DNA from: Escherichia phage PA52
Sequence record: KP682392.1
Direction: 5' to 3' (one strand)
Length of the DNA: 64,000 nt
Shown here: positions 42,001 to 45,000 of the stretch, piece by piece
Layout of the letters: each line of letters starts with the position of its first letter
Position numbering within the stretch: position 1 is the stretch's first letter
Made by a program: the position numbers

Positions 42001-45000
42001 ACAGGCAGAACAGGAGAATGACATGAATATTTTGAGAAAGCTTATGCAGAGTCTGTGCGGTTGCGGAAAGCATGATGACTGTGAAAACGGGCAGTCGCTT
42101 ACAGCACAACTGCGACTGGGACCGGCAGACATTCTGGAGTCAGATGAGAATGGCATTATTCCGGAGCAGGACAGGGTAATCACACAGGTGGTGATACTGG
42201 ATGCAGATAAAAAGCAGATACAGTGTGTGGTAAGACCGCTGCAAATCCTGCGTGCTGACGGGACGTGGGAAAATATTGGCGGGATGAAATAGCCGACAGC
42301 TTCACAAAAACCGGAGCCCGGCTCCGGTTTTTGTTGTCATGTATAGGGGGGGGTTATTAGAGAGTGAAGTAATAAACATGTTAATACGATGGAGTGAAGG
42401 ATGCCGTGTAATTCTGGTTCAAGAGTTTTTTATGCCGGAAAATCGCAGGATTATTCTGGATAGTAAAGAATCCTGGTTAATAATCTGTGATAGTCAGTTG
42501 GGCCATTTAATGCGCAGTATGTATCAGGGACGCCGTTTTATTCAGCTGAATCTGGAAAAATTGAAAGGGGTACATGATGTCGCCTTGCCAGTGAAATGGG
42601 AATTCACACGAAGACAGTGAATAGCTTTCTGTATACGGGAATGGCGAAAAATGGACTGTATGGTGTGAGTGTGAAACATCTTGCGTGTGCGGAGTGATGC
42701 TTCTCGTTGCTACAGCGGCAATGATAATGCAGTGAAAAAAGGGGAGCAATATGCTCCCCCAAACCGAAAGAAAATTGCAATAATCAATGAAGTTATTTAG
42801 TCATCATCAGAATGTCATGCAAGGCATTTTGTTTCAGTGATGCCGATCGCGATTTTAGCGAATTCCATCATAAATCCCCTGATTTTTAAGCCTGAAGCAG
42901 TCAAAGGAATTTCTATGCCCTATATCGATATCACCACGATGCGTGGGATGATGCCGCGCGTTGTGACATCCATGCTGCCCGAGCATTCCGCTGTACTGGC
43001 GGAGGACTGCCATTTCCGGTTTGGTGTTATTACACCAGAACGTCAGATATCCGGGGTTGAGAAAACATTCACAATTAAGCCAAAAACAATTTTTCATTAC
43101 CGTGACGATTTCTGGTTTGCATGGCCGGATGTGGTGGATGTGATCCGCAGTCCGATCGCTCAGGACCCCCACGGGCGTATTTACTACACTGACGGGCGTT
43201 TTCCTAAAGTGACGGATGCGACTATTGCCACAAAAGGGGACGGGAATCACCCGACATCATCGTATCGTCTGGGGATCCCCGCGCCGACGACAGCTCCTGT
43301 CTGTACTGTTCAGCAGGGCGGTGATGTTTCTGACGATAACCCGAATGATGATGAAACCCGGTTTTATACGGAAACCTTTGTCTCAGATTATGGTGAAGAA
43401 GGTCCGCCAGGTCCGGCGTCTCTGGAGGTAACACTCCGTACTCCGGGAACTGCGGTACAACTGACGCTGGCTCCGGTGCCATTGCAGAATGCCAGTATTA
43501 AACGTCGCCGGATTTATCGCTCTGCATCAGGTGGAGGGGAGGCGGATTTTTTACTTGTGGCTGAACTGGATGCATCCGTGCTCAGTTACACGGACAAAAT
43601 ACCGGCGAAAAACCTTGGGCCTTCCCTGGCGACATGGGATTACCTGCCGCCGCCAGAGAATATGACAGGCCTTTGCCTGATGGCTAACGGTATTGCCGCC
43701 GGGTTTGCCGGTAATGAAGTGATGTTTTCGGAAGCGTATCTGCCGTATGCATGGCCGGAAGTGAATCGTCACACGACGGCAGAAGATATTGTAGCTATCT
43801 GTCCGCTGGGAACGTCACTGGTGGTGGCGACAAAGGGGGAGCCTTATTTGTTCAGTGGGGTATCACCGTCCACAATTTCTGGTTCCAAAATCCCTTCAAT
43901 GCAGGCGTGTCTGAGCAGGCGGAGTATGGTTGCGATGGAGGGTTTTGTGCTGTATGCAGGAACAAATGGCCTGGTGTCTGTTGATGCAAACGGTAATGTC
44001 GCGCTGGCGACGGAACAGATTGTTTCACCGGAACAGTGGCAGAGTCAGTTTAATCCGTGAACCGCCCCGGGTTTCCTGGAGAGTGTTTTATCTGTGAACT
44101 CAGGCTGCCAGATCATCGTTTCCGATGGAAGCATAATAAGCTTTTTCTGCTTCTGCCGGAGGAGTATGGCCCAGCCTTCCCAGCAATCGTCGATTGTTAT
44201 ACCAGTCCACCCACGTTAGTGTGGCCAGTTCCACTTCTGCACGGTTTTTCCAGCTCTTACGGTGTATTACCTCCGCTTTGTAAAGACCATTGATGCTCTC
44301 AGCCATCGCGTTGTCATACGAGTCGCCTGTACTCCCTGTTGATGCCAGTAATCCGGCTTCTTTTAGTCGCTCCGTATAGGCCAGTGACACATACTGAGAG
44401 CCTTTATCGCTGTGATGGATGGTGCCAGACGGACGACGGGCCCACAACGCCTGCTCCAGCGCATCCAGCACGAATGTCGTTTCCATAGACGATGAGACCC
44501 GCCACCCCACGATGTATCCGGCAAACACATCAATGATAAACGCCACATAGACGAAGCCCTGCCATGTGCTGACGTAAGTAAAATCAGCCACCCACAGCTG
44601 GTCAGGTCGTTCTGCCACGAACTGACGGTTTACGCGGTCGCCTGCGGCAACGGCTTTCCGGCTGATGGTCGTACGGACCTTTTTACCCCGGAGAACACCG
44701 GCAAGTCCCATAACCGCCATGAGACGTGCCACTGTACATCTGGCCACCCTGATTCCTTCCCGTAACAACTGACGCCAGACTTTACGCACACCGTACACCT
44801 GATGATTTTCATCGTATACGCGCTGTATCTCTCTCTTCAGCCAGTCGTCGTGCTGCGCACGGGCACTGCGTTTATCCGGATGATGTCGCTGTTGCTGACA
44901 ATGGTAATACGTTGACGGGGCAATATGCAGTTCGCTGCATACCGGTCCGACCCCGTACTGCTCACGCAGCTTATCCAGCAGTGGCATCATTTTTTCCAGA

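Follow-up and report, generated by a model that had tools for sequence, protein, structure and literature searches.

Accessory cassettes lodged between conserved late genes of phages, known as morons, typically come with their own promoter and terminator, as Juhala et al. (2000) are cited in PMC4104026. Prophage late regions of enterohemorrhagic Escherichia coli (EHEC) also carry short small RNAs (sRNAs), among them AsxR and AgvB (PMC4104026; PMC13502914). Both kinds of element bear on a locus in Escherichia phage PA52 (record KP682392.1), of which a stretch of 64,000 nt, referred to below as the window, was analyzed. An earlier note on this DNA had described an AT-rich insert in the tail region, with an unknown open reading frame (ORF) and, on the opposite strand, a near-consensus promoter directed at a hairpin and U-tract, together defining a possible sRNA of the Shiga toxin (Stx) phages. 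Comparison with homologous loci favors another account: on balance, the segment 42304-42889 is probably a decayed lysogenic-conversion, or moron, cassette with an orphaned, backward-facing terminator in a 933W/Sp5-like Stx2a phage.

The insert resembles morons in lying between conserved virion genes, in having a lower GC content than its surroundings, and in being flanked by terminators on both sides. The GC content is 0.40-0.46 over 42300-42900, compared with 0.50-0.70 in the tail-fiber gene and 0.50-0.58 downstream, in agreement with the AT-rich insert that had been noted. A 623-nt element (42293-42915) shows 100% identity across more than 150 deposited Stx-converting phages, including 933W, VT2-Sakai/Sp5, Min27, and the PA series, and is also found in approximately 270 of 5,426 complete E. 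coli genomes. Its position corresponds to that between L0122/L0123 and L0124 of 933W, or between ECs_1229/ECs_1230 and ECs_1232 of the Sakai strain, where coordinates on NC_002695.2 equal those of the window plus 1,244,840. The coordinates of phage PA27 coincide with those of the window, which differs from it by a single-nucleotide polymorphism at 40592 and an additional IS629 inside the L0124 homolog. The slot that separates the tail-fiber genes from L0124, the next virion gene, is a hotspot for morons and is here occupied by a decayed cassette. Within the 300 nt upstream of L0124 relatives at 79 loci on viral contigs, at least five unrelated cargoes are present, including the 933W type, a GER2 type with an intact regulator, and an O104/phage 86 type carrying the exclusion gene cor together with an adhesin gene; further cargoes carry terminator-like hairpins in either orientation. 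The pair cor and adhesin fills the slot in phage 86, POCJ13, and O104:H4. The cargo varies among otherwise near-identical phages, as it does for morons, and a fixed slot between conserved genes, variable contents, and deviant composition all place the insert among the accessory cassettes. It departs from morons in that its cargo is dead (two pseudogenes), no promoter can be demonstrated, and the terminator on the right is in the wrong orientation to serve it.

The plus-strand ORF reported earlier is present (42339/42378..42620) and is L0123 of 933W (93 aa). Rather than an unknown gene, protein and DNA alignments together with a fold match indicate a pseudogene remnant of a NarL/LuxR-like regulator family. 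In phage GER2 the same slot holds a 166-aa ORF, with an N-terminal half similar to L0123 and a C-terminal end similar to a 33-aa ORF of the window (42596-42697). Database searches returned 44 relatives of L0123, all from E. coli and mostly 156-175 aa in length, of which 0/44 have a Pfam domain. Only approximately 42405-42590 of L0123 is homologous to this ~157-aa family, over residues ~25-95. The first ~24 family codons have been lost, with unrelated sequence at 42333-42404 in their place, and an internal deletion of ~110 nt shifts the frame, so that the last 33 regulator codons are stranded in another frame. These codons constitute the plus-strand ORF at 42596..42697, the out-of-frame end of the helix-turn-helix (HTH), identical at 32 of 33 residues to the end of the intact protein P0005. 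As judged from these alignments, L0123 is a pseudogene, the doubly truncated and frameshifted remnant of a regulator. No match to Pfam or NCBIfam was obtained for L0123, its intact relative, the small ORF, or L0124, the sole hit of this search being Phage_fiber_C in the upstream tail-fiber gene; with nothing from either database, the regulator family was analyzed by comparison of its profile with the PDB and of its predicted fold. The profile matched LuxR/GerE-type HTH chains only, and weakly (E 0.05-0.4). An AlphaFold (AF2) model of an intact member (pLDDT 84) gave FixJ, StyR, LiaR, EvgA, and RcsB as top Foldseek matches, with probabilities of 0.9-0.99 and TM-scores of only 0.3-0.45. On the basis of these profile and fold matches, the intact ~157-aa family most likely comprises regulators with a short receiver-like domain and a LuxR-type HTH in a NarL/FixJ-like fold. 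Intact relatives share with response regulators such as EvgA and RcsB a predicted N-terminal receiver-like alpha/beta domain and a predicted C-terminal four-helix LuxR/GerE-type HTH, but are ~50 residues shorter and lack any Pfam or NCBIfam match. The window's own L0123 lacks the first ~24 residues as well as the HTH, and no complete frame containing an HTH remains in it.

A second remnant directly abuts the regulator stop codon. The last 12 codons (MLLVATAAMIMQ, then the stop) of a small membrane-protein gene occupy 42697..42735 on the plus strand, the rest having been deleted according to the alignments. Where the gene is intact, an ORF of 41-43 aa follows the regulator and encodes a basic N-terminus and one predicted transmembrane helix, for example MEQEKIRCGKRKYTAGAMCFMLFVWLGGVVTLCVLAALITQ. 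Intact copies are found in GER2 (locus L003, 1363-1545) and at loci L088, L105, L109 (3021-3152), and L111; in the O104:H4/phage 86 lineage the ORF is frameshifted through a 14-nt deletion. Intact cassettes (L088 1763-3680; L097; L105; L109 1387-3185; L111 1-1520; GER2 L003 13-1570) are mostly located at the right ends of lambdoid E. coli prophages, commonly at the prophage end ahead of a convergent dinI gene. Their order is tail fiber, in some cases DUF4376, YadA-like adhesin, regulator, small membrane protein, a hairpin of the same family as that in the window, and a gene on the opposite strand. The adhesin is of the YadA-like trimeric autotransporter type, and relatives of the regulator also adjoin non-phage YadA-like adhesins, a type VI secretion/capsule locus, and hpa genes. 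The combination of YadA-like adhesin, ~157-aa regulator, and 41-43-aa membrane protein is a previously undescribed E. coli prophage cassette, and in its intact form could serve as a lysogenic-conversion module for adhesion with its own regulator.

The hairpin and U-tract noted earlier on the minus strand (42741..42759) are well founded. The Rho-independent terminator at 42734..42760 has a GC-rich stem of 8-9 bp, a 3-nt loop, and a T6 tract (42739-42734). Read along the minus strand, the hairpin (42760-42740) is GGGGGAGCA-UAU-UGCUCCCCU followed by T6, with nine pairs, six of them G-C, and a folding energy of approximately -16 kcal/mol; the plus strand has no T-run. Among 31 terminator-like sites in 23000-42999 it ranks second, and it is far beyond chance. 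The stem is invariant between the 933W type and the GER2/O104 type, and across six genomic contexts six of its pairs are invariant and two show compensatory changes (C:G to U:A and A:U to U:A), with 95.8% of cells paired. In these contexts the hairpin shares the position of convergent-gene terminators, lying just 3' of an opposing dinI, methyltransferase, or ykgJ-like gene. With dinI (L088, L105), the hairpin and its T-rich tail lie 7-11 nt past the stop codon; with the methyltransferase (L109) and the ykgJ-like pseudogene (L111) the distance from stop codon to hairpin is ~200 nt and ~100 nt, respectively. Because it stands just downstream of that gene in the homologous loci, the hairpin is most simply regarded as the terminator of the convergent neighbor. 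The window differs from these arrangements in that no convergent gene is left; a remnant of dinI beside its hairpin was considered and rejected, since, apart from the hairpin and a brief purine-rich spacer, alignment revealed no convincing homology. A convergent dinI is likewise present in L097, where the hairpin is broken in the loop: at ~3140-3160 homology to the window stops within the loop (AAAAAGGGGAGCAATA, then unrelated sequence), which suggests that cassettes can recombine with one another at the hairpin, using it as a joint. Several small ORFs annotated across the hairpin look spurious, namely L004 1419-1565 (phage 86 orf24), the corresponding ORF of L005 (POCJ13 gp59), and window 42681-42800 (PA27 AKI86699).

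Beyond the hairpin lies a non-coding block (42761..42889) that travels with the cassette and not with L0124; on the minus strand it is the sequence upstream of the terminator. The portion adjoining the hairpin is variable, while the core CAGTGAT.CCGATCGCGATT.TAGCGAATTCCATCAT (42834-42876) hardly varies. In L109 the homology with the window runs from 42700 across the hairpin to ~42889, with 81-83% identity over ~154 nt, and in L111 it extends to CCGATCGCG. The block adjoins the minus-strand methyltransferase gene in L109 and the minus-strand ykgJ-like pseudogene in L111, and in neither is it beside L0124. An 8-bp palindrome, ATCGCGAT, with a GATC site is found at 42846-42853, inside a ~40-nt core common to 933W-type, GER2/O104-type, and L109 loci, and part of the core, CAGTGATGCCGATCG, recurs in a third upstream arrangement (L044, L047, L049). 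The palindrome-containing core could be a protein-binding site. The right-hand gene, the conserved virion protein gene homologous to L0124, begins on the plus strand at the ATG at 42915, preceded by a Shine-Dalgarno (SD) sequence AAAGGA (42903-42908), where RefSeq places the Sakai ECs_1232 start. Annotations of 933W, Stx2 phage I, and PA27 instead use GTG/ATG codons at 42837/42840 that lack an SD sequence. The start at 42915 is favored because the 78 nt upstream of it belong to the cassette block.

The homologies, the deletions, and the anatomy and conservation of the terminator are observed directly, and a history can be proposed that would connect them. In the 933W lineage the regulator lacks its start region and contains the internal deletion and the frameshift, the membrane-protein gene is down to 12 codons, and the convergent minus-strand gene would also have been lost. 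The hairpin and ~130 nt of former downstream sequence would have been left intact, now adjoining the plus-strand virion gene. Since no convergent gene remains in 933W-like phages, terminator and flanking sequence are here considered orphaned. We infer that the terminator would at most halt stray leftward (antisense) transcription on its way into the tail-fiber genes, and that the locus contains no dedicated sRNA gene; any RNA ending at this terminator would most likely be incidental.

Several observations weigh against so passive a role. Two orphan lineages have kept the stem and a T-tract of 5-7 nt although identity over the neighboring ~70 nt is only ~55%, a hint of ongoing selection; against this, the hairpin may be no more than a recombination joint, as in the loop break of L097. 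The only other strong minus-strand terminator in 23000-42999 overlaps the sRNA gene AsxR. The U-rich stretch AAUUUUCUUUCGGUUU ahead of the hairpin, together with the hairpin and its U6 tail, resembles an Hfq-binding module, a likeness of sequence only. The best conserved -10-like hexamer on the minus strand (42852..42857) reads TAAAAT in the 933W and GER2/O104 types and TATAAT in L109, and is absent from L111; it has no good -35 element and lies ~90 nt upstream of the hairpin, and a candidate RNA of ~110 nt from it would end at the terminator. Lastly, the absence of the locus from the sRNA peaks listed for Sp5 by Hfq crosslinking and analysis of cDNA (Hfq-CRAC), none of which is near the Sakai equivalent (NC_002695.2 1287574-1287711, minus strand, for window 42734-42871), is weak evidence, because that screen retained only peaks more than 100 nt from annotated coding sequences (PMC7873438) and in older annotations L0124 starts at 42837 and ORFs cover the region.

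These observations raise the alternative of a genuine minus-strand sRNA of 50-125 nt that ends at the 42760-42740 terminator, an explanation that we consider unlikely overall, though the best of the rivals. Three versions may be distinguished: the ~55-nt transcript proposed at first, one of ~51 nt from ATGACA-17-TAACTT (~42784), and one of ~110-125 nt starting near 42846-42860. Such an RNA could have a promoter of its own or, in other prophages, derive from the 3' untranslated region (UTR) of the convergent gene, and could act as an Hfq-type trans regulator or as a cis antisense RNA against the stretch of late mRNA immediately preceding the L0124 homolog. In its favor, beyond the strong conserved terminator and its U-rich flank, the ~130-nt block upstream on the minus strand has been kept in four different genomic contexts, the GER2/O104 type carries an extended -10 sequence, TGcTATGAT, and the two contexts with 100-200 nt between gene and hairpin resemble those of 3'UTR-derived sRNAs in that a conserved 3' UTR precedes the hairpin. 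RNAalifold gives three helices upstream of the terminator, with four pairs changed on both sides between two lineages; this covariation is nevertheless a single A-vs-B contrast, drawn on the alignment from which the structure was also derived, and it includes weak G-U helices in the window. Variants within the GER2-type lineage break its 5' stem without compensation, and there is no strand asymmetry in folding, as both strands fold equally well (z -2.7 to -4.8).

The promoter evidence also runs against an sRNA gene. The proposed TTGCAT (42822-42817)-17-TAAATA (42799-42794) on the minus strand matches the consensus at 3/6 and 3/6 positions, lacks the conserved last T of the -10 element, and is not called by a consensus promoter scan. 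Its score under a rough position-weight model, with frequencies after published sigma-70 consensus tables, is 3.8 bits; a better site is present in 94% of 228-nt windows taken from this phage sequence, and 2839 sites in 128 kb (approximately 1 per 45 nt) score at least as well. Neither hexamer is kept in the sister lineage (GER2, O104:H4, phage 86). What had been described as near-consensus is therefore at chance level. The best minus-strand sites differ by lineage, with a -10 that ends 29 nt from the hairpin in the window and 56 nt from it in the GER2 type. No candidate is both strong and conserved in position, and no sigma-70 promoter better than chance stands at a conserved position, as an independent sRNA gene would have.

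Comparison with known sRNAs likewise yielded no counterpart. With Rfam 15 at gathering thresholds across the entire window, no family was found at the hairpin locus, and at a permissive E-value on 41800-43300 the best matches, both attributable to the terminator, were RsaOG (27.5 bits against a threshold of 50) and DapZ (22.5 bits against one of 56), with no hit better than E 0.09. The AsxR and AgvB models (RF02703, RF02702) gave 0 hits up to E 10 in 41800-43300, and AsxR matches only 23789-23841 in the window. RefSeq annotation of 268 genomes has no feature at the locus. None of the published sRNAs of Sp5/933W in Sakai coordinates (Tree et al., 2014, Table S2; table of a 2021 review) coincides with the hairpin: AsxR and EcOnc20/27/31/36/43/50/53 are located elsewhere, and StxS and sRNA110 are excluded by location only. 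HnrS is located in Sp9/10/12 and EcOnc53 downstream of lom. Full-text literature searches with the hairpin sequence (both strands, and also as RNA) and the locus tags retrieved no relevant paper. To judge by its number, the sRNA110 of Gruber and Sperandio (2015) probably lies beyond lom. Membership in the Pas sRNAs is unlikely, because PasB occurs in only 24 phage genomes, compared with more than 150 phage records for the insert element, and PasA, PasC, and PasD have a different context, beside holin, lysozyme, and Q genes. The candidate shares with AsxR/AgvB and other EHEC prophage sRNAs (EcOnc, StxS, HnrS, EcOnc53/24B_1) a position on the minus strand of a Stx-phage late region, a length of ~50-60 nt, a strong intrinsic terminator, and a U-rich flank; unlike them, it lies in the tail region and not 3' of PR'/stx, and it lacks a sequence or structure match, a listed Hfq-CRAC peak, and a convincing promoter. 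Of the prophage sRNA first proposed here, then, the strong conserved terminator with its U-rich flank stands, while the promoter falls, and no Rfam family, published Stx-phage sRNA, or RefSeq feature is located there. Data sets from differential RNA sequencing, Term-seq, and Hfq-CRAC exist for the Sakai strain (GSE143631, GSE46118).

A bolder form of the sRNA proposal, which we rate as a little less likely still, would treat the terminator and the ~130-nt block as a conserved minus-strand sRNA module that accompanies the cassette of adhesin, NarL-like regulator, and mini membrane protein, and that was the sole part kept in 933W-type phages, for regulating host or phage transcripts. Its RNA would come from a weak or activator-dependent promoter of its own, or would be cut from the 3' UTR of the neighboring gene, and would act, for example, as antisense to the late mRNA ahead of L0124 or as an Hfq-type trans regulator.

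Less probable again is a function on the plus strand. Transcription of the late genes in lambdoid phages traverses the insert region. Hairpin and block might act within the Q-antiterminated late transcript, as a stabilizing or processing structure or as a translational leader of L0124, an idea that we regard as improbable. Late transcription does cross the region (PMC7873438), the plus strand, at z -3.3 to -4.8, matches the minus strand in folding, and the ~85 nt ahead of the L0124 start are nearly identical between the 933W and GER2/O104 types. This near-identity may instead reflect recent shared ancestry, because GER2-type loci share the first 300 aa of L0124 at 100% identity, and since the block is also homologous in L109 and L111, where no L0124 follows, the apparent conserved leader travels with the cassette. 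A specially conserved L0124 leader was thus set aside, since the L0124 module is of recent common ancestry and the block is part of the cassette, which together largely account for the similarity. The conserved A-run 5' of the hairpin on the plus strand, moreover, makes sense only as a minus-strand U-tract. Least credible, and very unlikely, is a tiny protein (MMEFAKIAIGITETKCLA, minus strand, 42871-42815) on a short terminator-ended mRNA, possibly forming a toxin-antitoxin-like pair with the plus-strand membrane protein: an SD-like CAGGGG is kept 3-6 nt before ATGATG in the window, the GER2 type, and L109, and one glycine codon varies at its third position only (GGC/GGA/GGT), but that site is a third position in a plus-strand frame too, the length of the ORF is unconserved (14 codons in L015, cut by a premature TAG; 18 codons in both the window and L109; 24 codons in the GER2 type), its start is absent in L111, no promoter lies upstream, and the minus-strand RNA would not overlap the membrane-protein ORF, itself truncated in the window. 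Coding status for this mini-ORF (42815..42871) is accordingly unsupported. A type I toxin-antitoxin pair in the window was rejected for similar reasons, because an RNA of the minus strand that terminates at the hairpin would fall just short of the small ORF, which is cut to 12 codons.

The remaining features of the region surround the decayed cassette. Its left boundary is an intrinsic terminator on the plus strand, past the tail-fiber C-terminal gene (42304..42337; A5 - CCGGAGCC/GGCUCCGG - T5), and the terminator earlier placed after the tail-fiber genes (42310..42332) is borne out by this A5-stem-T5 hairpin (42304-42334; -25 kcal/mol, z -6.1), which could function in both directions because of its A-run. 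Sequence matching the left half of the insert (42293-42578) at ~93% identity, split into two pieces, recurs as annotated pseudogene fragments at L008 1501-1965 (E. coli AMSHJX01 and similar genomes, H49-H54). Fragments of the L008 type lie 3' of tail-fiber C-terminal genes in lambdoid prophages and shortly before type III effector genes (a DUF1076 protein, nleA). To the right, an IS629/IS3-family element (~44057-45367) splits the L0124 homolog into 42915-44060 and 45380-45853. Its transposase ORFs are on the minus strand (44100-44990 and 44987-45313), an apical loop-internal loop (ALIL) frameshift element lies at 44916-45032, and the element reads leftward, toward the orphan terminator. Because the IS element interrupts a gene that is intact in 933W and PA27, this phage copy may be defective for the virion protein. 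Identical ALIL pseudoknot matches occur three times (19550-19666, 26521-26637, and 44916-45032), which implies three IS629-type copies in one 64-kb phage region. Other Rfam elements in the window are STnc100 and AsxR, a convergent pair 3' of stx2B, isrK/C4-type antisense RNAs, sok, and the lambda cIII thermoregulator (ranges 23582-23841, 17165-17363, 62042-62216, and 7898-7956). Downstream of lom, two strong minus-strand terminator-like hairpins (49264-49241 and 49415-49392) probably mark the EcOnc53/24B_1/sRNA108 locus.

The significance of the locus depends on which explanation is correct. If a small RNA does end at the hairpin, the clinically important Stx2a phages, which occur in approximately 5% of complete E. 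coli genomes, would have a further regulatory RNA that is not yet listed, and it would have escaped a screen that discarded peaks lying near annotated coding sequences. If the terminator is an orphan, the insert would be an ordinary decayed accessory cassette, of a kind common in prophage late regions. The practical gain would then be in annotation, where L0123 of 933W (Sakai ECs_1230) should be labeled a pseudogene and the small ORFs that span the hairpin should be called spurious. Two further results are modestly useful: the undescribed cassette of adhesin, regulator, and membrane protein, and, in Stx phages, a recurrent insertion site upstream of the L0124-type virion gene.

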